In this document: in pieces, positions 6,135-55,681 of the stretch
Layout: each line of letters begins with the position of its first letter
Numbering within the stretch: position 1 is the stretch's first letter
Origin: an uncultured delta proteobacterium
Lineage (GTDB): Bacteria; Myxococcota_A; Polyangia; Fen-1088
Direction: 5' to 3'
NCBI GenBank assembly: GCA_963737265.1
Contig: CAVTRY010000022.1
Span: 32,001 to 96,000, forward strand
Length of the DNA stretch: 64,000 bases
Notes under the pieces: generated by a model
What the model saw: the letters and a program-made list of their open reading frames with translations, nothing else
The model's database searches: none
Told to the model about the DNA's origin: nothing
Translations under genes and position numbers: made by a program

Positions 6135-6711
6135 GGGTGCCTCCCTGAAACGGGGGCCCCAGCCGGGGGCTCGGTGAGGTAGCAACTTCTGGCGGAGTGC
6201 CGCCGAAAACGCAGATCTGGAACAGCGAGGAACGGAGAAACAGAGACAGGATGACTTTACTGGGCAAATTATCGCCGCCTGCATCGAAGTCCACCGTCAC
6301 CTCGGTCCCGGGCTGCTTGAGTCGGCCTACGAGCACTGCCTGGCGCGCGAGCTAGGCCTGCGTGGATTTCGCACGCAACGTCAGGTCGCGATTCCTCTGC
6401 AGTACAAAGGCATTGACCTCGACTGCGGCTATCGCCTCGACCTCATGGTGGAAGGCCGTTTGGTCGTCGAAGTCAAGGCGGTAGAGCAGTTGCTTCCTGT
6501 CCACTTGGCACAGTCATTACCTATCTCAAGCTCCTACGACTGCCGGTGGGCCTGCTCGTCAATTTCCACGTCCCCGTACTTCGCGAGGGTCTCCGCCGCC
6601 TCTCAACCCAACCCGTGATCCCTCTGGTCCTCCGTTCCTCCCTGTTTTTCCCTCCGATCCCACCTGCGCGGGGCGAGGTGAAGCCACAGCCCCCATTTCA
6701 GGGAAGCACCC
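6135..6711 (+). mobile_element. GxxExxY-carrying TIR element, copy 1 (577 bp; ORF has CTG in place of ATG and a 1-bp deletion)
   Basis: Ends GGGTGCCTCCCTGAAACGGGGGC and GCCCCCATTTCAGGGAAGCACCC; 9-bp target duplication CCCGCTAAT at 6126-6134 and 6712-6720. Confidence 0.9.
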
Positions 6712-6823
6712 CCCGCTAATGTCCCGCTGGCGCGCCGGCACGTGAAGTGTCAGCATAGCAAAATGCGTCCGTTCTCAGAGCCTGCGGGAGTGTCAAGGTT
6801 TGCGCTCTGAACCAGGTGCTGGC

Positions 6824-8230
6824 GTGGGATCCGGTGTGGGCAACACGACGGTGGTGACAACCGACGCGGGAGCGCGGAGCGTGGTCGGCCAGTCCGAGCT
6901 GTTGCTCACCTGGATGTTCCCTCAGCCGTCGCAACCGGCGATCGGTCTGCACTTGGGGGGAGCGGCCGAGCTCGTCGTCGGGCGCGACGAAGGGTGTTTG
7001 GTTCACCTGCCCGGAAACGATGTTTCGCGGCGGCACGCGGCACTGCGGAAGAACGAGGCTGGCTCCGGCGTCGAGGTCGTCGACCTGGGCAGCCGTAACG
7101 GCGTCTACGTCAACGGCCGGCGCGTCTCCTCGGCCCCGCTGCGGCGCGGGGACGTGGTCCGTCTCGGTGGCTGGGTGGGCGTGGTGACCGAGGCCGCCGG
7201 AACCTGCAAGGAAATCGCGCCTGGCTTGTTCGGGGGCGCGACGTTGCAGTCGGTGCTGGCGCCGGTGCAGCGCGCGGCTGCGAGCGATCTACCCATCATC
7301 CTCGAAGGCGAGACGGGAACCGGCAAGGAAGTGGTCACCCGCAGCGTCCACAAGTGGAGCGGGCGTTCCGGCCCGCTCGTGGCCGTCAACTGCGCGGCGT
7401 TGCCCGAGGCTCTCGCCGAGGGTGAATTGTTCGGGTACCGGCGCGGCGCCTTTACCGGCGCGGACAGGCCGAGCCCGGGTTTCTTCCGCAGCGCCGATCG
7501 CGGCACGCTGTTGCTGGACGAGGTGACGGATTTGCCGCTCGGGCTGCAGGCAAAACTGTTGCGCGTGCTCGAAGCGCACGAAGTCCAACCCCTGGGCGAG
7601 CCGCGCCCGATCCCAATCGACGTGCGCGTGGTGGTGGCGGGCCAACAATCGCTCATCGAAGCTTCGCGCCACGGGCGCTTCCGACCCGATCTGCTGGCGC
7701 GGCTCAACGGTGTCACCGTGCGTTTGCCGCCGCTGCGCAGCCGGCGCGAGGACGTGCCTCCGCTGTTCTCCCATTTCCTGGCCGAGCTGGGACAGGGCTG
7801 CGTGCCCGCGGTGGAAGGCGATTTCGTGGAGCGACTGTGCCTTCACGACTGGCCCTTCAATGTCCGCGAGCTGTTGCTGCTTGCTCGTCGACTCATGGTT
7901 CTTCACGGCGGCGAATCCACGCTGCGCACGTCGTACCTACCGGAGCGAATCGGAGATCTGTCGACGCCTCGACTGCCGCCAGGTGGCGCCGAGACGGCGC
8001 GCCCCCCGGCTACTTTCCCGGCTATGTCCGCCGTCAAAGCGAGTCCGGTCGAGCCCGTGGAGCTTCCCGCGCTGGTCGCCGCCTTGCGCACGTCCGGCGG
8101 CAACGTCGCGCGCGCAGCGGCGATTTTGGGCATCACCCGCCAGCGGGCCTACCGCTTGATGGACGGCAGCGCCGTCGATCTCGAGGCCTTGCGCAACCAA
8201 GAGCAAGGGCAAAAGGACAGCGGCCCGTGA
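6824..8230 (+). CDS. FHA-domain sigma54-dependent transcriptional activator (FHA-AAA+-Fis HTH)
   Basis: FHA (VGRDE, VSRRHA, DLGSRNG), Walker A GETGTGKE, GAFTGA loop, LLLDEV, WPFNVREL, HTH GNVARAAAILGITR. Start GTG 6824 chosen by homology to the mini-ORF at 9141 (track ORF starts at 6800). Confidence 0.93.
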   Translation: MGSGVGNTTVVTTDAGARSVVGQSELLLTWMFPQPSQPAIGLHLGGAAELVVGRDEGCLVHLPGNDVSRRHAALRKNEAGSGVEVVDLGSRNGVYVNGRRVSSAPLRRGDVVRLGGWVGVVTEAAGTCKEIAPGLFGGATLQSVLAPVQRAAASDLPIILEGETGTGKEVVTRSVHKWSGRSGPLVAVNCAALPEALAEGELFGYRRGAFTGADRPSPGFFRSADRGTLLLDEVTDLPLGLQAKLLRVLEAHEVQPLGEPRPIPIDVRVVVAGQQSLIEASRHGRFRPDLLARLNGVTVRLPPLRSRREDVPPLFSHFLAELGQGCVPAVEGDFVERLCLHDWPFNVRELLLLARRLMVLHGGESTLRTSYLPERIGDLSTPRLPPGGAETARPPATFPAMSAVKASPVEPVELPALVAALRTSGGNVARAAAILGITRQRAYRLMDGSAVDLEALRNQEQGQKDSGP

Positions 8231-8325
8231 TCGCCGTTATCCTGGGCGATGGTTCACTCGATCTGTGCCGCTTGCTCCCAAGATCCGACTGTCGTACCTT
8301 CCATGTCTCATGTCCATCCCCGCGA

Positions 8326-8902
8326 TGGTGCTTCCCTGAAATGGGGGCTGGGGCTTCACCTCGCCCCGCGCAGGTGGGATCGGAGGGAAAAACAGGGAGG
8401 AACGGAGGACCAGAGGGATCACGGGTTGGGTTGAGAGGCGGCGGAGACCCTCGCGAAGTACGGGGACGTGGAAATTGACGAGCAGGCCCACCGGCAGTCG
8501 TAGGAGCTTGAGATAGGTAATGACTGTGCCAAGTGGACAGGAAGCAACTGCTCTACCGCCTTGACTTCGACGACCAAACGGCCTTCCACCATGAGGTCGA
8601 GGCGATAGCCGCAGTCGAGGTCAATGCCTTTGTACTGCAGAGGAATCGCGACCTGACGTTGCGTGCGAAATCCACGCAGGCCTAGCTCGCGCGCCAGGCA
8701 GTGCTCGTAGGCCGACTCAAGCAGCCCGGGACCGAGGTGACGGTGGACTTCGATGCAGGCGGCGATAATTTGCCCAGTAAAGTCATCCTGTCTCTGTTTC
8801 TCCGTTCCTCGCTGTTCCATATCTGCGTTTTCGGCGGCACTCCGCCAGAAGTTGCTACCTCACCGAGCCCCCGGCTGGGGCCCCCGTTTCAGGGAGGCAC
8901 CC
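8326..8902 (-). mobile_element. GxxExxY-carrying TIR element, copy 2 (577 bp, inverted; frameshifted ORF 8419-8820)
   Basis: Same TIRs with one terminal base variant (T at 8326); 9-bp duplication TCCCCGCGA at 8317-8325 and 8903-8911. Confidence 0.9.
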
Positions 8903-9140
8903 TCCCCGCGATGGACATAACGGTGGCCTCGAGCGTCGGATCAATGCCCTACCGGTGGTCGCGAATTCGAGACTTTGGGATTGCGCGCGAAGCCCGCGCT
9001 ATATGGAATCGTGATCCCATCGGTGCTCCACGAAGCAGGATGAGCGCAAGGTCCGGCTGGCGCGCTGGCGCCCGCGGTGTCAGCATTGGCGCGTGCGTCT
9101 GCTGGGGTGTGCAACCAGGTAAGCCTAATCATGGAATAGC

Positions 9141-9284
9141 ATGGGATTCGGTGTGGCTAATACGAAGGTGGCGACCACCGTCGACCTGGGCAGCCGCGTC
9201 TACGTCAAAGGCCGGCGCTTCTCTTCGGCCCCGCTGCGGCGCGGGGACGTGGTTCGGCCGGGTGGCTGGGAGGCCGGGCCGTGA
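9141..9284 (+). pseudogene. 47-aa internally deleted relic of the FHA-sigma54 activator gene
   Basis: MGFGVANTKVATT-VDLGSRVYVKGRRFSSAPLRRGDVVRPGGW-EAGP* matches the activator N-terminus (MGSGVGNTTVVTT), its FHA segment (7079-7175) and its GP-stop end. Stop overlaps the kinase start (GTGA). Confidence 0.7.
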
Positions 9285-10702
9285 GCACCAAATTGCAGAC
9301 CAGTCGGGTCGGCGATCTCGTGGGGGAGAAATACCGCATCCTTCGTATCATCGCGGAAGGCGGAATGGGCGTCGTGTATGAGGCGCAGCACGCAGTGGTC
9401 AAGCGACGCTTCGCCATCAAGTTTCTACGCACCGATCTCGCCGACCGCCGCGATCTGCTGACCAGGTTTCATCGCGAGGCAGAGTCCGCCGGGGCGCTCG
9501 AGAGCGAGCACATCGCGGCGGCCATCGACTTTGGCATTCATGGCGATGGCACGCCCTACATCGTGATGGAATATCTCGTCGGTGAGAGCCTTGCTGCGCT
9601 GCTTGCGCGGGATGGGCGCCTGCCAGTGGGGCGCGCGGTCGACCTGTGTCTTCAGGCGTGCAAGGGCGTGCAGGCGGCGCACAGTGCGGGCATCGTCCAC
9701 CGCGACCTCAAGCCAGAGAATCTGTTTGTCACTCGACGCGAGGACGGCAGCGACGTCGTCAAGGTGCTCGACTTTGGCGTTGCGAAGCTGGAGCAGGCCG
9801 AGATCAGCCACGCGGCGACGACCACGGGAACCATTCTTGGAACGCCAGCTTACATGTCGCCCGAGCAAGCGCGCGGCGACAAGAGCATCGATCACAGAAC
9901 CGACGTTTACGGATTGGCGGCCATCTTGTTCGAGATGCTCTCGGGAAAGAAGCCTCATCCGGGGGATTCCCCCAATGCGATCCTGCACCACATTGCCACG
10001 CAACCTGCTCTGCCCCTAGCTTCGGTCGAGCCCGATCTACCGCCGCTGCTCGTGGACACGGTCGAGCGCGCTTTGTCATGCGATCGAAGCCAGCGCCACG
10101 CTTCCGCGGAAGCGCTGGGACTTGCGCTCGTGCCATTCACGAAGCGCGAGGTGTGGCCTGCGGCGAATGGTTCCGACCCGATTTCCGAGGTGGCCGCGGC
10201 ATCGCCCGTGCCGGGTTGGCGGTCGGCGGACTTCGAGAGTCCCACCGTTCCTGCTTCGGGGAAGCCGGCACGGCCTCGCCGACACCCGTGGACCATCGCC
10301 GCGGTTGGCGCCGGACTGGTCGCCCTGGCCGTCATTGCGATCTTGGTGGGAGCGAGGAGCACCCAACCTCCGAACGTGACGCAGACCGCGCCCGACAATG
10401 GCCACCGCCCCATCGTGCCTACGCCAGCCGAGCTGCCGGCGCCCGCGCCCGTGCCGGCCGAAACAGCGGTCCTTGCGCCCAACAGCGAGCAGGTGGCAAC
10501 GACCAGCGAGCCTCCGCCGTCCCACTTGGGCGACCGTCCGCGGCCCGCGCGGAGTCGCGCCGAACGTCCGATCGGACGTCCCACCGAACGTCCAGGAGAG
10601 ATTCGGGATTCCACGCCGTCGCTTTCCGCCCCACCGCCCGGTTCCTCGCAAGCGCACTCGGCGCCCGTCACTTTCGACCCGCACAATCCGTACGGAGACT
10701 GA
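9281..10702 (+). CDS. Membrane Ser/Thr protein kinase
   Basis: EGGMGVVY, HRDLKPEN, DFG, YMSPE; TM IAAVGAGLVALAVIAILVGA; Pro-rich tail ending FDPHNPYGD. Close paralog of the kinase part of 3648-6074. Confidence 0.95.
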   Translation: MSTKLQTSRVGDLVGEKYRILRIIAEGGMGVVYEAQHAVVKRRFAIKFLRTDLADRRDLLTRFHREAESAGALESEHIAAAIDFGIHGDGTPYIVMEYLVGESLAALLARDGRLPVGRAVDLCLQACKGVQAAHSAGIVHRDLKPENLFVTRREDGSDVVKVLDFGVAKLEQAEISHAATTTGTILGTPAYMSPEQARGDKSIDHRTDVYGLAAILFEMLSGKKPHPGDSPNAILHHIATQPALPLASVEPDLPPLLVDTVERALSCDRSQRHASAEALGLALVPFTKREVWPAANGSDPISEVAAASPVPGWRSADFESPTVPASGKPARPRRHPWTIAAVGAGLVALAVIAILVGARSTQPPNVTQTAPDNGHRPIVPTPAELPAPAPVPAETAVLAPNSEQVATTSEPPPSHLGDRPRPARSRAERPIGRPTERPGEIRDSTPSLSAPPPGSSQAHSAPVTFDPHNPYGD

Positions 10703-10703
10703 G

Positions 10704-11861
10704 ATGGCATACGATGTGCTGACCAATTCCCACCAGGGGCGCACGTCGCGGATTCTAATCATCATAATGGTGGTGCTCGGTTGGACAAGGACAGCACGGA
10801 CAGCCGAGCCATCACCTGAAGACGCACGTGAGGCGGCGAGACTGCACTACGCTCGTGGGCTCGAGCTGGCCGGCCAGGCCGACTACGAGGCCGCGCTGCG
10901 AGAGTTTACCGAGGCGTACGCGGTCAGCCCACACTTTGCCGTTCTCTACAACATCGGTCAGGCCGAGTTCGCGCTCGGCCGTCCCCAGGAAGCCATCGAA
11001 AGCCTATCCAGGTACCTGCGCGACGGTCAGGAGCAGATCCCGCCGACGCGGCGCCAGGACGTGCAGGCACAAATCGCACTTCTGGAGTCCCTTTTTGCCG
11101 AGCTGACGATCAACGCCGACCGTTCGGGTGTGCTGATCGCAGTCGATGGTCGCGAGATCGGCCGCACTCCCCTCTACCAGAGCATCAGGCTTGCGACCGG
11201 GACGCACAGGGTTGCCGCCACCCTGGAAGGAACGGAGACAATCAATCGAACCGTGACGCTCGTACCGGGGGATCGCCAGGTTCTGACCCTGGAGATGCCC
11301 GCTCCACCCGTGGCGGCGGCGAAGGTCGCGCAGGTTGAACCTGCGCCAGCCGTGCTTCCACCCGCAGGCGCGCCGACGGCGTTTGGGGCCGAGGCGGGCC
11401 CGAAAGCTCTACCCGAGTCGGCACTTGAGCGGCGAGTTGAGCCCGGCACACAAGCTCGGCGGCGCACGATGTCCATCTTGGGGTATTCAGCCGCTGGGGT
11501 GGGCGTGGCGCTTGGCGGCGCGGCACTTGGCGTGTACCTGTGGAATCGTGGTCGCTATCAGGATTGGCAAGACAACAACGCGGCTCTTCAGCAAGACAAG
11601 GGCGCGATCGACTTCCACGCCCGTCAGATGGCGAACAACCAGCTCGCCGACTCGCTCACGCGGGCCAACCATGTCATCGTGGGCCTGTCCATCGCTGGCG
11701 GAGTGCTCCTTGTGGGAGGTGTCGTACTCTGGGCGCGCGATCGGCTCCGGGGTGCGAACGAAGTGGAGGCTTCACCGGGCAAGACAGTTTCCGGCATCAG
11801 CATGGGATTGGCCTGGCAAGGGCGCTCGTCGGCAAACATTTCCTGGAGTGCTCCGTGGTAG
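10704..11861 (+). CDS. TPR + PEGA domain secreted/membrane protein
   Basis: Start MAYDVLT just after the kinase stop; TPR-like AARLHYARGLEL...VLYNIGQAE; PEGA IAVDGREIGRTPL; two hydrophobic helices and a terminal Trp. Confidence 0.85.
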   Translation: MAYDVLTNSHQGRTSRILIIIMVVLGWTRTARTAEPSPEDAREAARLHYARGLELAGQADYEAALREFTEAYAVSPHFAVLYNIGQAEFALGRPQEAIESLSRYLRDGQEQIPPTRRQDVQAQIALLESLFAELTINADRSGVLIAVDGREIGRTPLYQSIRLATGTHRVAATLEGTETINRTVTLVPGDRQVLTLEMPAPPVAAAKVAQVEPAPAVLPPAGAPTAFGAEAGPKALPESALERRVEPGTQARRRTMSILGYSAAGVGVALGGAALGVYLWNRGRYQDWQDNNAALQQDKGAIDFHARQMANNQLADSLTRANHVIVGLSIAGGVLLVGGVVLWARDRLRGANEVEASPGKTVSGISMGLAWQGRSSANISWSAPW

Positions 11862-11881
11862 CGGCGCTAACCGCCACACGA

Positions 11882-12577
11882 ATGCGCGGAATTGGATTTC
11901 TCCTACCTACCCTGGTACTTCAGGCCTGCTTTGACGTGCACCAGGTCGATCCAGGCAATGGACGCTTCGTCATCGACGACTTCGAAGACGGCGACCCGCT
12001 GCCCAAGGCTACGCCTCTGTTTCGCCAATGGCAGTGCTACACGTACAATCCGAACATTGGACAAGACCCGGCTCAGATTCAGACTGTGAGTTGCGACGTG
12101 AGGCCCCCCGGCGACAAAAGTGACTACGCAATGGTTACCAAGTTCGCTCTGCATAATTTACCCAATGAGGATTTGCAAGGCGGGGCTGCCTTGGTGACGA
12201 GTGCCGACCCAATGGTCGATCTCAATGGCTACCAGAACCTCGTCTTCAACTTGAGGGTCGATTTCGGCGATCTTCCTTCGACCAGCTTTGCATACGTGGC
12301 TCTCGACTGCGATTCAGTCACGGCGGAGAGTAAAAAGGTGGAAACCGACTTATTCCAAGTTGAGCAGCGGATCCCAGCCCCCAGCAATAGCTGGTCGACA
12401 ATTACACTGCCGCTGTCGAAGTTCGCCCAGCCCACATGGCAGAACAACCGCTTCGCTGACGGAACACAAGCATGTCTGGCCGTCGTCGATAGCATCAACT
12501 TTGGGGTCAACGGACAACTAGTGGGTGACCAATCGGGACATGGAGTTATCTACCTTGACGACGTCTCTTTGCAGTAG
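11882..12577 (+). CDS. Lipoprotein with CBM11/galactose-binding-like domain
   Basis: Lipobox-like LVLQAC; VIDDFEDGD, VDLNGYQNLVF, WSTITLPLSKF, IYLDDVSLQ pattern typical of CBM11/CIA30-like beta-sandwiches. Confidence 0.65.
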   Translation: MRGIGFLLPTLVLQACFDVHQVDPGNGRFVIDDFEDGDPLPKATPLFRQWQCYTYNPNIGQDPAQIQTVSCDVRPPGDKSDYAMVTKFALHNLPNEDLQGGAALVTSADPMVDLNGYQNLVFNLRVDFGDLPSTSFAYVALDCDSVTAESKKVETDLFQVEQRIPAPSNSWSTITLPLSKFAQPTWQNNRFADGTQACLAVVDSINFGVNGQLVGDQSGHGVIYLDDVSLQ

Positions 12578-12581
12578 CTTG

Positions 12582-13451
12582 ATGGCGCATCCAGGCGTGC
12601 GCCCGACAGCAGCATGGACGCTCGCGACTTGCCTTCTGTCCGGAATAGCGGCGTGCTCTGGTGGGACAGCAGGTACCAGCTATACGAAGATCGACGATAT
12701 GGAAGGCACCAGTGGTCTGATCGAGTGGATCCCCCCGACAGGCAACCCGGGCGCTTGGACCTCGTACACCGATACCCAGTGTGACCGAATCCTGCCAATG
12801 CCGGTCTATGCCGGAGGAACTTGGTCGTATGAGCCGGTGCCAGAGTACCAGACCTTCCCAGGAATCACCAGTAAAGCCGCCGCGCGCCTGCGCACCACCT
12901 CGCCGCTGATCAACCAGTTGGGTGCGGGTATCGCGTTCGATTTTGCAGACCTGACTCAGGCGCCCAATGACGCCGGGGCGTCCGCAGGTATACCCGCATG
13001 CATTCCTTTCTATCAGTACACTAAGAACACGCCATCGGTGACGGTCGATCTAACCGCCTACAGGGGCATCTCCTTCTGGGGCATGGCCAGCCCAGGCGCG
13101 GGCACCGGACGTGTCTATCTCAACGTCGTGGACAACCAGACCGATCCACGTGGGGAATTCTGCGTTCCCGACCCCACCAGCGCCCTAGGCTGTAACACCG
13201 TGTCCCGGTTTCCAGTTGATCTCACCAGCACATTTACCCAGTACACCGTCGATTTTTCCCAACTCAGGCGGGATGTAGGTTGGAGTTACCATGCTACCCC
13301 CGACGTTCTCGACCTCGAGAAAGTCTATTCCCTTTGGTTCCAAGTAGAAAACCCCGGCGGCAACTGTCCCCCTCCCTCGGTCTGCGCGGGGCAGCCACCG
13401 AGCCTCACCTTCGACTTCTGGATCGACGATCTGTACTTCGTCAACAAGTGA
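12582..13451 (+). CDS. Lipoprotein with CBM11-like domain
   Basis: Lipobox IAAC; IDDMEG, VDLTAYRGISFW, FTQYTVDFSQL, FDFWIDDLYF. Confidence 0.7.
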   Translation: MAHPGVRPTAAWTLATCLLSGIAACSGGTAGTSYTKIDDMEGTSGLIEWIPPTGNPGAWTSYTDTQCDRILPMPVYAGGTWSYEPVPEYQTFPGITSKAAARLRTTSPLINQLGAGIAFDFADLTQAPNDAGASAGIPACIPFYQYTKNTPSVTVDLTAYRGISFWGMASPGAGTGRVYLNVVDNQTDPRGEFCVPDPTSALGCNTVSRFPVDLTSTFTQYTVDFSQLRRDVGWSYHATPDVLDLEKVYSLWFQVENPGGNCPPPSVCAGQPPSLTFDFWIDDLYFVNK

Positions 13452-13486
13452 GCCAGCGAAGCATCCATGCTATCATTGATATCAAT

Positions 13487-13717
13487 ATGGCGCAGCTCAT
13501 CGTGAGGGACATTCCCCAGCAGGTGGTTAGCCGACTCAAGCAGCGAGCCGCAAGTCGCGGACATTCAGCCGAAGAAGAGCATCGCGAGATCCTCAAGCAG
13601 GCGCTGCTCCCGCCGCCAGCACCCTCGTTGAAAACGATGCTGTGCGAAATTCCCGATGTGGGGCGCGACTCCGACTTCGGACGACCGCGACGCTTGGGGC
13701 GGCGAGTTGCGTGGTGA
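13487..13717 (+). CDS. FitA-like ribbon-helix-helix antitoxin
   Basis: MAQLIVRDIPQQVVSRLKQRAASRGHSAEEEHREIL; stop overlaps the PIN gene start. Confidence 0.85.
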   Translation: MAQLIVRDIPQQVVSRLKQRAASRGHSAEEEHREILKQALLPPPAPSLKTMLCEIPDVGRDSDFGRPRRLGRRVAW

Positions 13718-14139
13718 AGGGCTTTCTGATCGATACAAACGTCCTCTCGGAACTACGCAAAGGCGCACGCGCCGATGTCAACGTTCGGCGGTGGTTCGAG
13801 GGAATTGATGAGAGCTCAATCTTCTTGAGCCTCTTGGTCACAGGCGAGATTCGGCGCGGGATCGAGTCAATCCGGAAGCGCGATCCGCGCGCTGCCTCGA
13901 CACTGGAACGCTGGCTCGACAACGTGATGGAGGCGCATTCCGAGCGCGTCCTGCCGGTCGACGCCGCGACTGCGGACGAGTGGGGGAGGCTCGACGCTCG
14001 AGGGAGCTTGCCAGTTGTAGACGGATTGCTAGCTGCGACGGCACGGGTACACGACCTGACGCTGGTCACTCGCAACGTGAAGGATGTTGTCCGAACCGGC
14101 GCCGACGTGCTCGATCCCTTCTCCGCGACAGCGCGTTAA
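13714..14139 (+). CDS. vapC: VapC/FitB-family PIN toxin
   Basis: FLIDTNVLSELRK, GEIRRGI, VDGLLAATA, LVTRNVKD PIN motifs. Confidence 0.9.
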   Translation: MKGFLIDTNVLSELRKGARADVNVRRWFEGIDESSIFLSLLVTGEIRRGIESIRKRDPRAASTLERWLDNVMEAHSERVLPVDAATADEWGRLDARGSLPVVDGLLAATARVHDLTLVTRNVKDVVRTGADVLDPFSATAR

Positions 14140-14281
14140 GTCGCGGGTGGAGTCGTCATGCCAGTGTCTCGCCTGGCTGCAAGGCAAGTCATCGGCACTC
14201 TTCTGCGCACAAAGGCACTAAACGGAGCGGACCGATAGCTCGGCAACAGGTGAGCCGCCGACATGGCCTCGGGACTCTTGT

Positions 14282-14296
14282 TGGTACGGTCGTTGC
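14282..14296 (+). promoter_or_regulatory. Putative sigma54 promoter of the clan GH-A hydrolase gene
   Basis: TGGTAC-GGTCG-TTGC, followed by an AGGAGG RBS (14310-14315) and GTG at 14325. Confidence 0.7.
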
Positions 14297-14324
14297 TTCG
14301 GCTTCGTATAGGAGGAACTAACAC

Positions 14325-43377: not shown

Positions 43378-43946
43378 GGGTGCATCCCTGAAACGGGGGC
43401 CCAGCCGGCGGCTCGGTGAGGTAGCAACTTCTGGCGGAGTGCCGCCGAAAACGCAGATATGGAACAGGGAGGAACGGAGAATCAGAGACAGCATAACTTT
43501 ACTGGGCAAATTATCGCCGCCTGCATCGAAGTCCACCGTCACCCTCGGTCCGGGGCTGCTTGAGTCGGCCTACGAGCACTGCCTGGCGCGCGAGCTAGGC
43601 CTGCGTGGATTTCGCACTCAACACCAGGTCGCGATTCCTCTGCAGTACAAAGGACTTGACCTTGACTGCGGCTATCGCCTCGACCTCGTGGTGGAAGGCC
43701 GTTTGGTGGTCGAAGTCAAGGCAGTAGAACGGTTGCTTCCTGTCCACTTGGCACAGGTCATTACCTATCTCAAGCTCCTACGACTGCCGGTTGGCCTGCT
43801 CGTCAATTTCCACGTCCCCGTACTTCGCGAGGGTCTCCGCCGCCTCGTGAACCCAACCCTTGATCCCTCTGATCCTCCGTTCCTCCCTGTCTTTCCTTCC
43901 GATCCCAGCGAGGTGAAGCCCCAGCCCCCATTTCAGGGAAGCACCC
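43378..43946 (+). mobile_element. GxxExxY-carrying TIR element, copy 3 (569 bp, most diverged; +1 frameshift near 43543)
   Basis: Ends GGGTGCATCCCTGAAACGGGGGC and GCCCCCATTTCAGGGAAGCACCC; 9-bp duplication TGAAGCGAG at 43369-43377 and 43947-43955. Confidence 0.9.
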
Positions 43947-46722: not shown

Positions 46723-46770
46723 AACAGCCGCCAACGTCGTTCGTCAACGCACGAATTCTAGGAGAATCCT

Positions 46771-48210: not shown

Positions 48211-48620
48211 GCAATTTTCACACCAACCCCGCCATCGCCGCGTAGGCGCGCCGGTGGCTGGCCCATGGAAAGCGCGAAGCCATGCTGCGCGCCCCGATTC
48301 AGGCATACGAGTCCTCGCGCCGAAGGCTCACGCCACCCGTGGGCCATTGCGCGCCTGGTAGAACGAAGTCGGCCCAAGACGGGGCCGAAGGGTTTCGGGG
48401 TAACCGTTTCATCCAGGACGGCCACGACGCGATGGGAGCCGCTCGGCATGTCGGATGGGACATCCACCACAAGCTGATGGGCTGGCGTCACGATTCCCTG
48501 TCGTTTGCGGTGCTTTCATGGCGGTCCCCTTGCTTGGAATTGTAACCGGGACAGAATCAAAGGTGAGTCGGGAATGGTTTCACTCCGCCCACCAATGGTG
48601 CGTCCCCGGCGCCCACGTCG

Positions 48621-50403
48621 GGGTGGGTTGCACGGGTCCGGGTTTCATGACTGGGCGGCCTGGGCTTGGGTGTGAGGCCAGAGGGCGAGCCAGGCCCCCG
48701 GGTTGTAGAAGGCAACCCTGAGCGCGACCATGGCTTCAAGGCCGACCTCGCTCCAGAGCATGCCGCCTTGCTTGCAGCGCCGGCCGACGAGGCGCTTGTT
48801 GGTGCTTTCGATGGCGGCACTGGCCAGCGGATAGCCGGCAGCGTGGTATGCGGGGTAGTCCATCATGTACTTGTGGCGGCTCAGGTAGCCGGTCAAGTCG
48901 TCGAGGGCTTTGACCGCTTGGCTGCCGGTGGAGCGCTGCCGCTCTTGGGCGAGGCCCGAGAGCACCTGGTCGACCTTGCCGTCCATGATGGCCTCGGTAC
49001 GTGGCAAGACCCAAGATGGCACTGCTTTCTTGTCCGGCACGACCTTGTGACCTGCCTCCCAGACATGCTGCTTGGCGTGCTGGCAGTCGAGGATGCCAAG
49101 CAACGGCTGGTCGCAGAAGATCTCGTCGCTGTGCTCGATGAAGTAAGCGCCACCGTCGGAGACACGGACTACCTTCTGGCGAGACAGCACGCCCTGGGTC
49201 GTGGCGGCGGCGTGCAGCTTGTGCCAAAAGCCGTCTCGGTCGTTGAGTGTTGCGACGTAGCGCCGGTCCAGCAAGACGCCTCGGCCGGGGCTCTCCTCGC
49301 AGGCGTGTTCCCCGAGGTAGGTCAGTCCCATGCACACCTCGCGGCCGGCGACCCGTGGTGAGCGCCCGGTGGGCCCCATGGGCGAGCCAGCGACCTCGGA
49401 CAGGGTACTCGGCGCCTGATGGCGAAGGGCACGTTCGCCGGTCTCGCTGACCGCTGCCGACTGTGTGGCGTTCGGGACCGCAGACGGCGCCTTCGCCTCG
49501 TCGGTCGCTTTGCGCCGTGGCTCTTGTCCTGGTTTCCAGGTCAGGACGTGAACACCGTCAACCTCGATCACGCCGAAGCCCTCTGTACGCTTGGGCGCAC
49601 ACAGGTCACCGCGAGCCTGGGCGTGCCACCTGTTGGTCGTACTTGCTCCAATGGGCTTCGGCATCGGCCTGGGCGGCCTGGGCGGCACGCGTTCCATCTT
49701 CGGTCACCCATCGCTTGGCGGTGCTCCCGTCGGGAGCCACGGCCCACAGGTAACGGAGTTCCTCGACGGCCTCGTCGAAGCTGCCCATCCGGCAGGCCAG
49801 CCTTTCGGTCGCCTCGCGCACATCGTCGGCGTATTCGCCCGCAGGAAGGCCCCAAGCCTCGTCAAAGGCAAACCAGCTGCGGCCGCAAACACACTCGTTG
49901 CGTCGACGATCGGCTTCCACCCGACCGAATCTCGCCACGAACGTCGTTCTCTCAAATCCTCTGGATTTGGCTTGCTTTCCACAGGTGCAGACTTGTCCAG
50001 GTCCATGAGCCCGCGCGGCCTGTTGGATGACCAGTTCCATGGCTCTTCGGCCCACAGTCGACAACGTCGTCGCCAGCGCAGCCCCCAGCGTCGCCACGGA
50101 CATGCCATCGCCGCGCAGCGCTTGTTGTTCGAGCTCGTTCAATTTCTGGACGAGCGGTTCCAGAGCCTGCAAAGTCAATCCTGCGACATTGGGTCGTCTC
50201 ATGGCGGTGCCTCCTTCTTGGATAGCTGAAGGCATCGCCATGAATCTCCTTCCTACGCAAATTCCTTCCATTTTGGGAACCACGCCAGGGCCCGTATTCC
50301 GAGCGCGCCACCCACCAACTCGCCCTCGAATCAACGTCCCGTAGCGCGCTCGGAAAACGGGCCCTTCAGCCGCCACCAGAACCCGGGCCCGTGCAACCCA
50401 CCC
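48621..50403 (-). mobile_element. ISKra4/ISLre2-like (Mutator-type DDE) insertion sequence, 1783 bp
   Basis: 24-bp TIRs GGGTGGGTTGCACGGG(T/C)CCGGGTT; 9-bp duplication CCCACGTCG at 48612-48620 and 50404-50412; subterminal 22-bp inverted repeat at 50287-50308 and 50344-50365. Confidence 0.9.
48645..50240 (-). pseudogene. Frameshifted transposase (ORFs 49606-50376 and 48645-49697)
   Basis: N-part with Cys motifs and PAGEYADDV; C-part with EVDGV, VSDGGAY, ILDCQHA, ASAAIESTNK, RCKQGGMLWS. +1 frame change near 49620-49640 with no obvious slippery site. Start position approximate. Confidence 0.8.
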
Positions 50404-50471
50404 CCCACGTCGCGGAGGTGTAGGCAGCCGAGAAGTTGTCTGGTAGTATTCCGACCCTGGTGGGGAAGAGA

Positions 50472-51242
50472 ATGCAGAAAGTACTTGGCTTGCTTATATG
50501 TTGCCTGGCCGTGGGGCGCGTCGCTCGGGCCGAGGATGCGGGCCAGGACTCACGCGTGGGCGAGGCGAAAGCAGCTTGTGTGGCGGGCGACGTCCAGAAG
50601 GGCGTTCGACTTTTGGCCGAGCTGTACATGGCGTCGGGCGACTCGATCTGGATCTTCAACCAGGGACGTTGCTATCACCAGAACGCTCAGCCTGCCCTCG
50701 CCTTATCCAGATTCAAGGAATTTTTGCGCAAGAGTCAAGGCGCTCTCGATGAAGATATCACGGACGCGAAGAAATACATCGCTGAAATCGAAGCCGATCA
50801 GCAACGGGAGCAGCCGGCTAGCGGGGCCGCGTCGACCGCGACAGCACCAGTGCCCGGCACCTCTGCGCAGGCCATCCCGCGCGAGCCCCGACGCGGCCTG
50901 CGCAACACCGGACTCGGAGTTGGCATTTTCGGGGGCGCGGCCTTGGTCACCGGGGCCGTGTTCACGCTGCTCGTGAAGCAGACGGCAAGCGACGTCGAGA
51001 ATCAGACCAAGAACGATGTGGTCGCGGCGTCCGCGGTCAGCGGAAAGCTCGCGGACGGTCGTCGTTACGAGACCCTGCAGTGGATTTCGTATGGGGTGGG
51101 CGCAGCGGCTGTTGCCGCTGGAGGCGTGCTTTACTGGATGGGATCGACATCCACCGCGCACAAACCTCAGGCAACATCGACGTATGCCTTTCCCGTCTTC
51201 ATGGCCAACGGCGCGGGCGCCGGTCTGAACATGGCTTTCTAG
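50472..51242 (+). CDS. Secreted TPR-like protein with C-terminal membrane segments
   Basis: Signal peptide; IFNQGRCY TPR; two hydrophobic helices; terminal GAGLNMAF. Same architecture class as 10704-11861 but without PEGA. Confidence 0.75.
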   Translation: MQKVLGLLICCLAVGRVARAEDAGQDSRVGEAKAACVAGDVQKGVRLLAELYMASGDSIWIFNQGRCYHQNAQPALALSRFKEFLRKSQGALDEDITDAKKYIAEIEADQQREQPASGAASTATAPVPGTSAQAIPREPRRGLRNTGLGVGIFGGAALVTGAVFTLLVKQTASDVENQTKNDVVAASAVSGKLADGRRYETLQWISYGVGAAAVAAGGVLYWMGSTSTAHKPQATSTYAFPVFMANGAGAGLNMAF

Positions 51243-51254
51243 TCGCGTTTTCCC

Positions 51255-54200
51255 ATGAGGATGACCATGCCCAGATTTCAGGTTCGCTGGCTGGCGTTCG
51301 CGGGCTTCGCGTACGCTCTTGCCGGTTGCAGCTTTTCGCCAAACATTCCGAATGGCCACATCAGCTGCCAAACACAGGCTGATTGTCCATCCGGCTACAC
51401 CTGTGAGCAGGTCCAGTTTCCGAAGACTGTTGCGCAGCCTCCATTGGTCAGAGTGTGCTGCAAGGGTACGGCCTGTGGGGCCAACCTCCCTCAGGACGTA
51501 ATCTCGAAGCTTCTATCTCTCGACGGTGGCAACGATGGTCCGACGACCACCGACGTCGCTCGCGCCGGGGACGGCAGCTCCGATGCCATCGGCAATGCCC
51601 GTCCGGACGCACGTTCAATTGACGAGGCAGTCGATGTTCCGCAGACTCAAATTCCAGATGCGCCCTATGCCGGCGAGGTTACCACTTCCAACGGAGGCCA
51701 AGGTGGGACCTCGGTCGGAGCCCAAGGGGGCAACACGACGGGCGGCGCAGGAATCTCAGCGGGCGGGAGTTCTGTGGGCGGCGGGCCTCAGGGTGGCACA
51801 ACCGGCGCAGGCGGTTTCCCAGCGGTGGGCAATCCAGCAGGGGGCAATTCGCTCGCTGGCAGCCTTGCCGGCGCAAACCCGGCCGGTGGCAATCCGGCGG
51901 CGGGAAATCCCGCGGCTGGTGGTTCTGCCGGCGGCGGGCCTCAGGGTGGCATTACCGGCGCGGGCGGTTCCCCGGGAGCGGGCAATTCAGCAGGAGGCAA
52001 TTCGCTCGCGGGCAGTCTTGCCGGCGGAAACCCAGCTGGTGGCAACCCGACGGCGGGAAATCCCGCGGCTGGCGGCTCTGCCGGCGGCAGCCCCGCGGGT
52101 GGGATCCCAGATGGTGGCGCTAGTGGCGGAACCACTGGCGGCGGAGCCGGAGGGGCCACGGTCGTCATCGATGACCCCACCTGCTCCTCCTTCACCGTTC
52201 CAAGGACCGTCAAACTGACACCGCAGGATCCGGGGGCCGCGACGAAGCTGGTGCTAATGTCCCAGAACGACAAGATCACCATGTTGTCTGGCGACAAGGT
52301 CGTCAATTGGAGTGGCGACACCGCATTCCGCTCCCTCGGCGTTGCTAGCGCAGGCGTCACGGACTTCCCCATGCGCGATGGACCGCGCGGCGTGCGCAAT
52401 ATCAATGGCGAGATCGGCACCACGTGGGCCGTTGCCGAGGCGCGCGCGGCTTCCTTCGATCTGGACCTCGAATACCAGGTCGGCAAGTACCAGGGGCTGG
52501 ACATGCGCGCGGCGAAAGACGATCTCGCGCTCGCGCCTACGGTCAACCTGCTTCGCCACCCGCGCTGGGCGCGCGCCCAGGAAACCTATGGCGAGGATCC
52601 CGTATTGCAAGGCGAGATGGGTGCTGCCTACGTGCGAGGAATGCAGCAGGAGGGCAACACCGCCGCTTGCCCCAAGCACTTCGTTGGCAACGACACCGAC
52701 AATAATCGCGGCACCGCCGACCCCATTTACGACGAACAGACCCTGCGCGAGAACTACACGCGGCCTTTCGAGATCGTGGTCAAGAAGGGAGATCCGGCGT
52801 GCATCATGGCGGCCTATAACCTGGTCAACGACACGCACTGCACGGAAAACAAGCATATCCTGACCGATATTCTGCGTACCGACTGGGGCTGGGCCGGTTT
52901 CGTGGTGAGCGACTGGGATGCGACGGTGGTCGGCCACGGCGCCGCGTCGATAAACGCGGGCCTCGATCTCGAAATGCCGAATCCCCAGGCGTTCACCACC
53001 CTCGCTGGCGACTTGGCCGCAGGAAACACTACCACCGCCACGCTCAACCAGTCCGTCCTGCGCATTCTCAACGCGCGCATCAAGCTCAATGACTTCGATC
53101 CCGCCTACGAGGCCGCCACGAAGACGTCCGGCCATGCCTCCGACACGGCGAACGTCAATCTCGCGGAACGAACCGAGCTGGAGGGCGCGGTTCTGCTCAA
53201 GAACGACGGCATTCTCCCGCTCGGAGCCACGGCGACCGTGGTCGGCAGCGGGACTCCTAACGTCAAGACCATCGCCATCGTCGGCCCCGACAACAACCTG
53301 CCCGTCATGCCGCAAAACGGCGTTGCCGGATCGGTCTCGGGGCTGGGTGATCGCGGAACCAGTCAGACCTCGCCGCCGCACGTGGTTTCCTACTACCAGG
53401 GCTTGACGAACCACGGTGGCGTCGTGATCAACCAAAGCGCGGACTCCTCCGCGGCGGCAGGGGCGGACGTGGTCATCATTCCGGTCTCGATGGCTCACGA
53501 GGATGAGGGCGAGGCTTACGGTGGGGGCGCCGACCGCCAGAACATGAACTTGACCACGATCCACCCCCTGCACTGGACCACGAAACCGACAGCCTTCATC
53601 GCGAGCGTCGCCGCCATCAACCCGAACGTCATCGTGCTGCTCAACGTGGGTAGCGCCGTCATCGTCGAGGACTGGATGGCCAGCGCCAAGGCTATCATCC
53701 AGACCTTCTATCCCGGGCAGGAAGGCGGAACCGCCCTGGCGACGCTGCTGTTTGGCGACACCAATTTCTCGGGCAAGCTCCCCTTCACGGTCGGACAGAA
53801 CGAAGCCGACTATCCGCAGTTCCAGAACAGCGGCGGGGCAGCGACGACCATCGACTACTACCACGGCTACCGCTTGTTCGAAAAGAACGCCAAGCCGGTG
53901 CGCTACTGGTTCGGCTACGGCATGAGCTACACGACCTACAAGTACAGCAATCTACAGGTGCAGTGCTCGAAGGTTTCGCCAAACGGTCGCCTCAATGTTC
54001 AGGTCACGGTCCAGAACACCGGCGCGGTTGCCGGGGACGAGATCGTTCAGCTCTACATCGGCTATCCGAACAGCAAGGCGCCCAAGCGGCCGGTCAAGGA
54101 GCTCAAAGCCTTCACGCGGGTTACGCTCGCTCCTGGCGCGAGCCAGAACGTCCAGCTCTCCGTGCCCGCGACGGACACAGCCTATTGGGATGTAACCAAG

Positions 54201-54296
54201 AATGCCTGGACGGTCGAGTCGGTGGCACACACGGTTCTGGTGGGGCCGAGCGCCGATCCAACTCAGCTTTTGTCAGCATCCTTCACGATCCAGTAG
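51255..54296 (+). CDS. GH3 beta-glucosidase lipoprotein (paralog 2) with Cys-rich N-domain and repeated Gly-rich linker
   Basis: Lipobox LAGC; CQTQADCPSGYTC; catalytic part nearly identical to 44134-46722. Confidence 0.93.
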   Translation: MRMTMPRFQVRWLAFAGFAYALAGCSFSPNIPNGHISCQTQADCPSGYTCEQVQFPKTVAQPPLVRVCCKGTACGANLPQDVISKLLSLDGGNDGPTTTDVARAGDGSSDAIGNARPDARSIDEAVDVPQTQIPDAPYAGEVTTSNGGQGGTSVGAQGGNTTGGAGISAGGSSVGGGPQGGTTGAGGFPAVGNPAGGNSLAGSLAGANPAGGNPAAGNPAAGGSAGGGPQGGITGAGGSPGAGNSAGGNSLAGSLAGGNPAGGNPTAGNPAAGGSAGGSPAGGIPDGGASGGTTGGGAGGATVVIDDPTCSSFTVPRTVKLTPQDPGAATKLVLMSQNDKITMLSGDKVVNWSGDTAFRSLGVASAGVTDFPMRDGPRGVRNINGEIGTTWAVAEARAASFDLDLEYQVGKYQGLDMRAAKDDLALAPTVNLLRHPRWARAQETYGEDPVLQGEMGAAYVRGMQQEGNTAACPKHFVGNDTDNNRGTADPIYDEQTLRENYTRPFEIVVKKGDPACIMAAYNLVNDTHCTENKHILTDILRTDWGWAGFVVSDWDATVVGHGAASINAGLDLEMPNPQAFTTLAGDLAAGNTTTATLNQSVLRILNARIKLNDFDPAYEAATKTSGHASDTANVNLAERTELEGAVLLKNDGILPLGATATVVGSGTPNVKTIAIVGPDNNLPVMPQNGVAGSVSGLGDRGTSQTSPPHVVSYYQGLTNHGGVVINQSADSSAAAGADVVIIPVSMAHEDEGEAYGGGADRQNMNLTTIHPLHWTTKPTAFIASVAAINPNVIVLLNVGSAVIVEDWMASAKAIIQTFYPGQEGGTALATLLFGDTNFSGKLPFTVGQNEADYPQFQNSGGAATTIDYYHGYRLFEKNAKPVRYWFGYGMSYTTYKYSNLQVQCSKVSPNGRLNVQVTVQNTGAVAGDEIVQLYIGYPNSKAPKRPVKELKAFTRVTLAPGASQNVQLSVPATDTAYWDVTKNAWTVESVAHTVLVGPSADPTQLLSASFTIQ
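51777..52085 (+). repeat. Two 153-bp in-frame tandem units in the Gly-rich linker
   Basis: GGGPQGG.TGAGG.P..GN.AGGNSLAGSLAG.NPAGGNP.AGNPAAGGSA starts at 51777 and again at 51930. Confidence 0.8.
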
Positions 54297-54346
54297 AAGG
54301 CCCGTCCCGCGCCAAGGTGCGGAAGTGGTGCACGAGTGCTGTCAGG

Positions 54347-54397
54347 TTGGAAGGCGGCGACCGCCAAGCTGAGAGGATCGGCTGCTGGCGGGCTGCC
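54347..54397. repeat. 51-bp perfect direct repeat of 56484-56534
   Basis: TTGGAAGGCGGCGACCGCCAAGCTGAGAGGATCGGCTGCTGGCGGGCTGCC occurs at both sites. Confidence 0.9.
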
Positions 54398-54468
54398 ATG
54401 GGCAGCTCGGCCTGCGTGGGCGATGCACATCAGTTAGCTGGAAGCCCACAGTCGGCGACAAAATTCCG

Positions 54469-54825
54469 CTAAACGTGTTCCAACGCTTCAACGACGAAAT
54501 GATTCAAGCTTTCGCCTCTAGCCATCGCCTTCAGCGCTAGTTTCCTGTGCGTTGCGGGTGCGATCCTGACCACGAATTTGCCACTGTATTCCCGGCCTAG
54601 CTGACTCGCTGGTTCGGGCATCTTCTTGTCGAGCACATCTTGCGCGAGGTCTTCGACGATGGTCGCCAGTTGCGCGGCCACTTCCATCTCGGTATCCCCG
54701 TGACAGCACTGGCCGACCAGAGGCGGAGCGCTGCCCACGTAGCAGCGATCTTCCTCGCTCCACTCGATGATGCGAGGGTAGCGCGCCACCAGACGACGGA
54801 TCTCCTCTTTACGCTTCGTGCTCAT
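54469..54825 (-). CDS. hicB: HicB-family antitoxin
   Basis: IEWSEEDRCYVG, CCHGDT, YSGKFVVRI, ESLN; start overlaps the hicA stop. Confidence 0.9.
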   Translation of the reverse strand: MSTKRKEEIRRLVARYPRIIEWSEEDRCYVGSAPPLVGQCCHGDTEMEVAAQLATIVEDLAQDVLDKKMPEPASQLGREYSGKFVVRIAPATHRKLALKAMARGESLNHFVVEALEHV

Positions 54826-55019
54826 TTTTGCCCCTTCTTGATGATGCTGCGGACCTGCTTTTCTTGATACCGTCGGGCGTCGTCGCCGTCCTGTCCCGAG
54901 AGAATCACCGTGGCACCATCCTTCGGATGCCGAAACTTGCGATGACTTCCACGCGCGGTTTCCTGGAGGAAACCGGCGCGCTTCAGCTCGGCTATCAGCT
55001 CCCGAAGTTTCCGCGGCAC
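54822..55019 (-). CDS. hicA: HicA-family mRNA interferase toxin
   Basis: MPRKLRELIAELKRAGF...RGSHRKFRHP...YQEKQV. Confidence 0.92.
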   Translation of the reverse strand: MPRKLRELIAELKRAGFLQETARGSHRKFRHPKDGATVILSGQDGDDARRYQEKQVRSIIKKGQK

Positions 55020-55026
55020 AAATTGA

Positions 55027-55057
55027 TAGTATCACAAATAGTATCACACTGATACTA
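55027..55057. promoter_or_regulatory. Putative hicAB operator
   Basis: TAGTATCA-caaa-TAGTATCA-cac-TGATACTA (direct plus inverted octamers) immediately upstream of hicA. Confidence 0.6.
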
Positions 55058-55103
55058 CAATTTCAAGGCGCAACGACCACCAGAAGCGCGGGCTGCCGGC
55101 TAC

Positions 55104-55681
55104 GGGTGCCTCCCTGAAACGGGGGCCCCAGCCGGGGGCTCGGTGAGGTAGCAACTTCTGGCGGAGTGCCGCCGAAAACGCAGATATGGAACAGCGAGGA
55201 ACGGAGAAACAGAGACAGGATGACTTTACTGGGCAAATTATCGCCGCCTGCATCGAAGTCCACCGTCACCTCGGTCCCGGGCTGCTTGAGTCGGCCTACG
55301 AGCACTGCCTGGCGCGCGAGCTAGGCCTGCGTGGATTTCGCACGCAACGTCAGGTCGCGATTCCTCCGCAGTACAAAGGCATTGACCTCGACTGCGGCTA
55401 TCGCCTCGACCTCATGGTGGAAGGCCGTTTGGTCGTCGAAGTCAAGGCGGTAGAGCAGTTGCTTCCTGTCCACTTGGCACAGGTCATTACCTATCTCAAG
55501 CTCCTACGACTGCCGGTGGGCCTGCTCGTCAATTTCCACGTCCCCGTACTTCGCGAGGGTCTCCGCCGCCTCTCAACCCAACCCGTGATCCCTCTGGTCC
55601 TCCGTTCCTCCCTGTTTTTCCCTCCGATCCCACCTGCGCGGGGCGAGGTGAAGCCCCAGCCCCCATTTCAGGGAAGCACCC
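55104..55681 (+). mobile_element. GxxExxY-carrying TIR element, copy 4 (578 bp)
   Basis: Same TIRs; 9-bp duplication GCCGGCTAC at 55095-55103 and 55682-55690. Confidence 0.92.

Follow-up and report, generated by a model that had tools for sequence, protein, structure and literature searches.

We describe here a short repeated element in a stretch of 64,000 nt (the window; C22:32001-96000) of the genome G000, whose nearest named relatives are uncultured Myxococcales/Deltaproteobacteria metagenome-assembled genomes. The assembly amounts to 6.55 Mb in 25 contigs, with an estimated contamination of 7.6%. Four copies of the element, about 578 bp in length, lie inside the window; they can be aligned end to end with a mean column identity of 95%. 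These repeats are very probably copies of a mobile insertion cassette (MIC), namely a non-autonomous derivative of an insertion sequence (IS) of the ISKra4 family (prokaryotic Mutator-like DDE elements), which carries a GxxExxY gene as passenger. We place the outer element with ISKra4 because of its target preference, its ends and its target-site duplications (TSDs). According to this model, an ISKra4-type transposase would bind the outer terminal inverted repeats (TIRs) in trans and insert the cassette via a 9-bp staggered cut. Insertion would often take place 16 bp from a -35-like box, keeping the copies intergenic, and a recent burst would have given rise to about 39 copies, mostly 98-99.7% identical. 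In this outer movement the nuclease gene would be cargo.

The layout of the element is composite. Positions 1-23 are the left TIR of the IS, followed by a linker (about 24-40), the GxxExxY unit (about 41-525) and the right end of the IS including the right TIR (526-579). The GxxExxY unit consists of a leader, an inner left arm, an open reading frame (ORF) of the PD-(D/E)XK type and an inner right arm.

Copies of the element in the window and in the genome

An initial annotation of the window had listed four intergenic copies with TIRs of 23 bp, each with a different perfect 9-bp TSD. All four copies were found where they had been listed, and both the TIRs and the distinct TSDs are confirmed for each of them (Table 1). 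The TIR consensus of the window copies is GGGTGC[C/A/T]TCCCTGAAA[C/T]GGGGGC; the outermost base at one end of copy 2 is A, not C. The TSD of copy 2 is TCGCGGGGA, the reverse complement of TCCCCGCGA given in that annotation. Copy 3 has an A at TIR position 7, a tail with a 10-bp deletion and a frameshifted ORF; its subfamily is about 93% identical to the rest and comprises 4 copies genome-wide. Copies 1 and 2 have two deletions in common, 383delG and 474delG, which break the ORF of both, and the start of copy 1 is in addition changed from ATG to CTG. Among the window copies, the core frame is open in copy 4 only.

A genome-wide BLASTN comparison, which the initial annotation had called for, places the element at many more sites. 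Using copy 4 as a query, blastn yields 44 high-scoring segment pairs at 39 loci, mostly with 98-99.7% identity, and 35 of these loci have both TIRs. The TSDs of the 35 two-TIR copies are perfect 9-bp duplications in 31 cases, all different in sequence; one is one base off, two have two mismatches, and one copy has none. The intergenic placement stands at this larger scale: once the element is taken out in silico, no ORF with a high G+C content at third codon positions is broken at 32 of the 35 sites, and at the other 3 there is an overlap of 25-113 nt with the end of an ORF. The core frame is open in 18 of the 35 copies, 17 of these with ATG. Indels are shared across differently placed copies (383delG in 8, 474delG in 5, 370insC in 3). 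Because frameshifted lineages kept spreading, the copies would have been moved in trans, or gene conversion would have taken place between them.

Reads were consulted in the form of Logan contigs of soil-metagenome runs. In contigs of run X1, the depth of the element is 59-98, compared to about 2-4 in the flanks, and there are loose ends at both TIR boundaries, one of which is the flank of another copy. The contigs of independent runs bear out the existence of separate copies, with unrelated flanks at exact TIR boundaries. Pieces in the soil metatranscriptome run X5 are 90-99% alike, one with a 221-bp internal skip; they derive from relatives, and DNA carry-over is possible.

Table 1. Features of the element copies in the window (positions refer to the window)
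Feature	Position	Strand	Remarks
Element copy 1, 577 bp	6135..6711	+	TSD CCCGCTAAT at 6126-6134 and 6712-6720
Element copy 2, 577 bp, inverted	8326..8902	-	TSD at 8317-8325 and 8903-8911
Element copy 3, 569 bp	43378..43946	+	TSD TGAAGCGAG; older subfamily
Element copy 4, 578 bp	55104..55681	+	TSD GCCGGCTAC at 55095-55103 and 55682-55690
GxxExxY / PDDEXK_3 ORF of copy 4, 171 aa	55186..55701	+	domain at residues 13-128
Inner left arm of the GxxExxY unit	55188..55219	+	about three AAC[A/G]G(C)[A/G]AG-type sub-repeats; encodes the N-terminal tail
Inner right arm	55590..55621	+	imperfect reverse complement of the left arm; encodes the C-terminal tail
IS-derived right end, element positions 526-579	55628..55681	+	92.7% over 55 bp to the transposase-distal end of the L146 ISKra4-family IS
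TTGACC, -35-like box	55698..55703	+	16 bp from the junction of the right inverted repeat of copy 4 with the genome

Some copies outside the window are of irregular structure. Two MIC copies (L002, G000:C20:13500-16700; L003, G000:C23:162000-165100) are interrupted at different positions by the same IS of about 1.4 kb of the IS4 family, the 438-aa transposase of which matches PF01609 and NF033592 (the latter with a score under the cut-off). At G000:C17:62354-63520, two tandem copies in the same orientation lie 9 bp apart, with the 9-mer GCGCCACGG before, between and after them; one of the two has an older-type TIR. This suggests a double hit on one target, or unequal exchange. A 776-bp copy (G000:C13:547670-548445) has an internal insert of about 190 bp with about 12 nt duplicated at the insert edges, and a 681-bp copy (G000:C20:7328-8008) has extra internal DNA and is devoid of a TSD. 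Next to copy 4 of the window there are, on one side, a HicA-like 65-aa ORF overlapping a HicB-like ORF (window 54469-55047, minus strand) and, on the other, an AbrB/SpoVT-like 79-aa ORF (window 55733-55972, plus strand); both have the look of toxin-antitoxin genes, as judged by eye only.

Origin of the ends, target choice and alternative explanations

A search of the genome for the TIR, allowing up to 5 mismatches, gives 76 hits, 73 of which are MIC ends. Two of the three remaining hits, each with 4 mismatches (19/23 match), coincide exactly with the two ends of an IS of 2120 bp (C20:66979-69098); by our estimate, which assumes equal base frequencies, about 0.1 such hits are expected by chance. 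This C20 IS is flanked by the 9-bp TSD GGAAAGCGG, and encodes a protein of 466 aa with a score of 256.9 bits against NF033572 (ISKra4 family transposase; cut-off 205). Scanning the metagenome for the TIR pattern returned 11 contigs, and four of them (L143, L146, L148 and L150) contain elements of 1999-2148 bp that are bounded by pattern-fitting TIRs and encode transposases 73-74% identical to that of the C20 IS. The right end of the MIC (positions 526-579) aligns with the transposase-distal end of the L146 IS (E 1e-17; identity in Table 1), and similarity to this IS at the left end of the MIC is confined to the TIR. The initial annotation had envisaged an autonomous IS sharing these TIRs; four with pattern-fitting TIRs are present in the metagenome, and none in this assembly. 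It had further considered that the element might be a remnant of a catalogued IS with a known passenger of the GxxExxY type. Derivation from a catalogued IS family, ISKra4, does apply. GxxExxY is, however, absent from all autonomous ISs found, so the element is not a shortened form of an IS already known to carry such a passenger. The transposase would be supplied either by the resident single-copy C20 IS or by an IS with closer-fitting TIRs that was lost from the assembly, or never binned into it.

Other sequences with related features were encountered. The C20 IS has a second ORF of 141 aa 3' of its transposase gene (L001 2537-2962, plus strand) without a match in Pfam, NCBIfam, PADLOC, PHROGs or, by sequence, the PDB. 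Another IS, ISKra4/ISLre2-like and 1783 bp long, lies in the window itself (48621-50403, minus strand); it has the TIR GGGTGGGTTGCACGGG[T/C]CCGGGTT and 9-bp TSDs, and at least 10 full-length genome copies with 99.6-99.8% identity. Its transposase is split over two ORFs, of 256 aa and of 350 aa, and may be frameshifted; it is only 31% identical to the C20 transposase in the C-terminal half. We rejected it as a partner of the MIC, as it shares only GGGTG with the MIC ends. A lone 23-bp copy identical to the right TIR of the MIC exists in another genus of the family (L142 3064-3086, in G018:C51). This lead was also dropped, with no second TIR and no ISKra4 transposase within 7 kb.

According to the accessible part of Guérillot et al. 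(PMC3942029), p-MULT/ISKra4 elements have inverted repeats of 18-39 bp with a terminal C and direct repeats of 8-9 bp, the insertion sites of the ISKra4 group lie 13-17 bp upstream of sigma-A promoters, and the orientation of TnGBS relative to the promoter is conserved; four ISKra4 elements with extra genes of unknown function are mentioned as well. We compared the 31 MIC sites having a perfect TSD with random sites (20,000 for the TTG count and 5000 for the -35/-10 score). TTG, the start of a -35-like box, is located exactly 16 bp from the junction in 7/31 right flanks and in 6/31 mirrored left flanks, compared to 1.2% of the random sites. A -35/-10 score of at least 8 is reached by 7/31 right and 3/31 left flanks, and by 34/5000 random sites. 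At copy 4, the TTGACC box is followed by TACTCT after a spacer of 17 bp. Most insertion sites have no clear -35-like box. We attribute the intergenic bias to this preference, because insertion often takes place 16 bp from such a box.

As far as the available text of PMC3942029 extends, the MIC has in common with the ISKra4 group a 23-bp inverted repeat ending in C, a 9-bp direct repeat and insertion about 16 bp from a -35-like box; it differs in lacking a transposase and in its variable orientation, and the autonomous ISs found here are without GxxExxY. In the accessible portions of the reports on the MICs with qnrS2 and qnrD (PMC2600179, PMC3913671), these likewise have IS-type TIRs and TSDs, no transposase and one passenger, and are moved in trans. 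The present element is distinguished from known MICs by its ISKra4-family ends, by a copy number like that of miniature inverted-repeat transposable elements (MITEs), with 39 loci, by a passenger that is a non-adaptive nuclease unit with inverted repeats of its own, and by an ORF without a stop that reads out of the element. A further example of a MIC is MIC231 of Bacillus cereus. With MITEs the element shares non-autonomy, the combination of TIR and TSD, and dozens of near-identical intergenic copies; in contrast to a strict, non-coding MITE it is 578 bp long and coding, its 129-aa domain ORF being subject to purifying selection when species are compared.

Several observations weigh against derivation from ISKra4 and movement as cargo. 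The C20 IS is single-copy, and tblastn found no second close transposase in the genome. No IS in the 25-contig assembly has TIRs fitting the MIC pattern; the C20 IS is off at 4 of 23 positions at each end, and its similarity to the MIC past the TIR is not above that of shuffled sequences. Of the metagenome ISs, the two for which both flanks are available (L143 and L148) have no TSD, which may result from chimeric metagenome assembly. The MIC lies in either orientation relative to the -35-like box (7 right, 6 left), unlike TnGBS. Neither an empty site nor an excision joint skipping the element, as looked for at the suggestion of the initial annotation, is present in the Logan contigs examined. 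On the other side of this check, the genes flanking copy 2 adjoin directly in three relatives of the same genus (G001, G002 and G008); in G000 the spacer has about 470 bp beyond the MIC, so that no base-precise empty site is available. Judging from these abutting genes, the insertion of copy 2 is apparently a later event. Finally, the open nuclease frame in 18 of 35 copies, together with purifying selection between species, makes a helper role of the nuclease conceivable.

Taken further, such a role would mean that the GxxExxY nuclease itself mobilises the 578-bp element, as a PD-(D/E)XK transposase or homing endonuclease acting on the outer TIRs, with the ISKra4 likeness being secondary. We consider this very unlikely. 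The open frames, the conservation of the catalytic-type residues E35, D75, E85 and K87 in the protein (see below) and an assembly devoid of a transposase with closely matching TIRs would be in line with it. However, the outer TIR pattern is that of DDE-transposase ISs lacking the nuclease, one of which matches the last 55 bp at 93%; a 9-bp TSD and -35-proximal targeting are ISKra4 traits in the accessible part of PMC3942029; and relatives carry the gene without these TIRs and at low copy number. A weaker version, in which the element is an ISKra4 MIC and nuclease and inner arms raise the success of the cassette by arm-directed breaks, gene conversion or addiction-like maintenance, is improbable, in that frameshifted and start-less copies are dispersed as widely as intact ones and whole-element blastn of this genome gave only MIC loci, with no ORF-less hairpins having MIC-type arms. 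Speaking for an active cargo, the consensus has kept its inner arms intact, purifying selection acts on the gene between species, arms and gene are linked family-wide, and gene conversion between copies could also give the shared indels.

That the copies arose without transposition, by segmental duplication or as a repeat that was collapsed or made chimeric when the genome was assembled from a metagenome, is scarcely credible in view of the 31 different perfect 9-bp TSDs, the sharp boundaries at the TIRs, the unrelated flanks seen as loose ends exactly at these boundaries in independent runs, and the two copies interrupted by another IS; the 25-contig state of the assembly and its estimated contamination of 7.6% would be points in favour of an artefact. 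A cassette with ISKra4-type ends moved in trans is thus the reading we retain. The initial annotation had proposed just such a transposase-less TIR/TSD element with one passenger, moved by a DDE transposase, and the TSDs, the IS ends and the frameshifted lineages support it. Its other suggestion, a contribution of the nuclease to mobility or maintenance, is not required in cis for the outer element, as frameshifted lineages spread; for the inner arms such a contribution may apply and would be of more interest. As a vehicle for the spread of GxxExxY genes, as it had also put forward, the element accounts for 39 copies in this genome only, and a general mechanism is not supported, given that relatives have the gene without these TIRs.

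The captured GxxExxY unit and its inverted arms

The only family matches in the element are PF13366 (136.6 bits, cut-off 22, E 6e-40) and TIGR04256 (GxxExxY; 138.7 bits, cut-off 35, E 1e-40). To this extent the GxxExxY ORF is the sole cargo, as initially annotated, but its frame is broken in 3 of the 4 window copies. GxxExxY/PF13366 was listed as being of unknown function in a 2012 survey of the PD-(D/E)XK proteins. PADLOC, PHROGs and the PDB, searched by sequence, returned no match for the nuclease. An AlphaFold model based on 47 sequences has a predicted local distance difference test value of 92.8 and displays a minimal restriction-endonuclease-like fold. The best VIA structure matches are R.SwaI and a Spirosoma restriction-endonuclease-like protein (both Z 7.7) and SSO0001 (Cas4; Z 7.6), followed by Hjc (Z 6.1) and another Cas4 (Z 6.0); Foldseek of the model against the PDB gave nothing at E <=0.001. 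With these middling Z values, the model supports the PD-(D/E)XK fold class and not a specific relative. Three residues do not vary among the 47 sequences, namely E35 (of the GxxExxY motif), E85 and K87, and the conservation of D75 is 90% or higher.

The unit also occurs by itself. G005 (91% identity, positions 41-513) and G009 (82%, positions 47-522), which belong to the same genus, have the unit only, with unrelated flanks and no TIRs. Their ORF ends 146-155 codons in, just past the inner right arm. This stop is lost in the MIC: the 579-bp consensus has no in-frame stop, and the ORF runs through the right TIR into the flank. Omega amounts to 0.13-0.22 between species, indicative of purifying selection, and to 0.39 between two subfamilies of G000, a value based on few changes. 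In a sample of 101 genomes of the phylum the family is found in 13, with 39 matches in G000 and 1-9 in the others.

Two arrangements of the unit in relatives of the same genus may be added. In G005, at L028 (C17), a copy of the 3' tail of the unit (query 477-531) immediately adjoins the 5' leader of the unit that follows, without TIRs, as might be expected from a tandem or circular intermediate. G003 and G004 contain at least 11 copies (L007, L008, L014-L027) of an element of about 310 bp with an internally deleted GxxExxY unit, in which the 5' ~100 nt are fused to the 3' ~80 nt. About half of these copies have a TIR of about 33 nt that differs from that of the MIC (roughly GGGAACCCT..AGGGCA.CCCTTTCAAGGTGTT). 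This element would be a second, independent TIR vehicle of the GxxExxY unit.

Inverted arms are a feature of the family and not of the MIC alone. In the MIC, an imperfect inverted repeat encloses the ORF core; its left arm is GGAACAGCGAGGAACGGAGAAACAGAGACAGG, which pairs with the reverse complement of a region containing CTCCGTTCCTCCCTGTT. The sole non-MIC GxxExxY gene of G000 (C22:198320-198787) is located between recA and a comM-like gene (comM being a label by eye). It has an inverted repeat of about 40 bp with CACAGAG/CGCAGAG heptamers, which encodes the N- and C-terminal tails. Across phyla, we aligned the upstream edge of GxxExxY loci locally to the reverse complement of the downstream edge, 78 of the 80 loci returned being usable. 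The arm score is at least 30 at 58/78 loci and at least 40 at 46, while 0/71 displaced controls taken from these loci reach 30 and shuffled sequences average 17. Arm length is 25-40 bp, and the median separation of the arms is 469 bp. Typically, an arm consists of three sub-repeats in steps of 8-9 nt, of the type CACAGAG, CGCAGAG, CACGAAG, CACCAAG or CGCGGAG, and an exact 5-mer occurs three times in both arms at 23/58 loci, compared to 3/390 control pieces. The initial annotation had raised the possibility that GxxExxY genes in other taxa have TIR/TSD boundaries; this is not the case, as the boundaries there are the genes' own heptamer-repeat arms and not of the IS type. Genes of four-helix-bundle proteins (PF05635) were considered as alternative cargo of such arms; there are none in G000, and three loci in G033/G035, a small sample, are without arms.

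The spacer between comM and recA allows the unit to be followed through the genus. It is present there in G000, G002, G003, G005, G008 and G010, and in part in G004; G011 has a 5'-truncated unit and G007 a solo right arm. In G001 the unit is deleted, with about 14 nt of the left arm left, and G006 and G012 are without it. The arms at this locus differ between species, with, for example, five heptamers in one arm of G008. From this distribution the standard GxxExxY unit is apparently old and vertically inherited, unlike the habit of an IS. A vertical, single-copy habit is also reported for the REP-associated tyrosine transposases (RAYTs; REP, repetitive extragenic palindrome). Because the comM-recA unit is kept at one locus across the genus, the MIC is an exception and not the usual way in which the family spreads.

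ORF-less hairpins and a possible partnership of nuclease and repeats

Arms of this kind are also dispersed without the gene. A search for CACAGAG-type triple-heptamer arms gives 59 hits in G031, 48 in G032, 23 in G033 and 76 in G035, and a control pattern read backwards gives 0; GxxExxY matches in these genomes number 1, 1, 2 and 5, respectively. Many of the arms form convergent pairs of 80-150 bp without an ORF. The type of the dispersed arms was compared with that of the gene arms in five genomes (G032 and G036-G039; the CACAGAG pattern was run on G032 only, and one mismatch was allowed in the CACGAAG search). G037, with a CACGAAG gene arm, has 47 dispersed CACGAAG arms, and G039, with a CGCAGAG gene arm, has 30 CGCAGAG arms, both with 0 of the three other types tested. 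In G032 the gene arm is CACAGAG, with 48 dispersed arms of this type and 1 CGCGGAG; in G036 it is CACCAAG, with 46 CACCAAG and 23 CACGAAG; in G038 it is CGCGGAG, with 4 CGCGGAG and 19 CGCAGAG.

The hairpin loops are unrelated between copies in G035 and conserved in G031 and G036. The gene unit and the hairpins of G036 share 15-20 bp outside the arms as well as the last loop bases, as would be expected if the hairpins are internal deletions of the gene unit. In the spacers between heptamers, 26/63 nt are unmatched between the arms of hairpins that were chosen by their exact heptamers; this suggests recognition of heptamers and would fit a perfect stem less well. For the hairpins without an ORF in G035 and G036, we were unable to define either a TSD or exact ends. 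A comparison of hairpins and units with Rfam returned no family, the only matches being generic microRNA-like hairpins below the threshold.

In the phylum sample, at least 20 generic arms are found in 5/12 of the other GxxExxY-positive genomes and in 2/88 of the negative ones (Fisher p 2e-4, with kin not being independent). The association is incomplete, as four positive genomes have 0 arms with the restricted pattern. G080, a genome of the sample with 95% completeness, contains 35 CGCGAAG-type triple-heptamer arms and has no TIGR04256 match; either the gene was lost and the arms stayed behind, or it escaped detection.

Based on this dataset, which is correlative, we tentatively propose GxxExxY as the protein half of a widespread nuclease-plus-repeat partnership, a reading that we hold to be plausible if somewhat short of probable. 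The nuclease might recognise or cut its cognate arms and thereby propagate or maintain the hairpins, in a manner similar to RAYTs and REPINs (doublets of REP sequences) but on a PD-(D/E)XK fold. Each gene would be placed between inverted arms of about three heptamers (CACAGAG, CGCAGAG, CACGAAG, CACCAAG or CGCGGAG; AAC[A/G]GAG in the window), and arms of the gene's heptamer type would be dispersed over the same genome, from tens to more than 100 in number, with many of them paired into ORF-less hairpins. The element in the window would then be a second-order event, in which a whole unit was captured between ISKra4 ends and amplified 39-fold.

For the inner unit only, the REP/REPIN-RAYT system, as presented in the accessible part of PMC3337134, offers a parallel: there, too, a single- or low-copy gene is flanked by inverted cognate repeats and kept at one locus across a genus, with tens of ORF-less inverted doublets per genome. 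The differences are considerable. RAYT is a Y1/HUH tyrosine transposase, whereas the protein here is a PD-(D/E)XK nuclease, as known from sequence and model; a REP is a small palindrome, whereas the arm here is an array of about three heptamers; and, in contrast to REPINs, the hairpin loops are variable in some genomes. We found no paper linking GxxExxY, PDDEXK_3, TIGR04256 or PF13366 to flanking repeats in the literature searched, the coverage of which excludes most subscription journals.

The MIC is a clean and datable case of an ISKra4-family cassette with a MITE-like copy number, and it accounts for the 39 GxxExxY-model matches of this genome, compared to 1-9 in the other positive genomes of the phylum sample. 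ISKra4-type promoter-proximal targeting is shown here in a myxobacterial genome, and it puts dozens of outward-reading ORFs and TIRs beside promoters. The cargo raises the interest of the case, as a nuclease-plus-arms unit that recurs across phyla with cognate hairpin populations. Cognate arms and hairpins provide a cheap and testable hypothesis for the function of GxxExxY/PF13366, by comparing own and foreign arms. If the proposed partnership is true, the element in the window would be one selfish system riding another.

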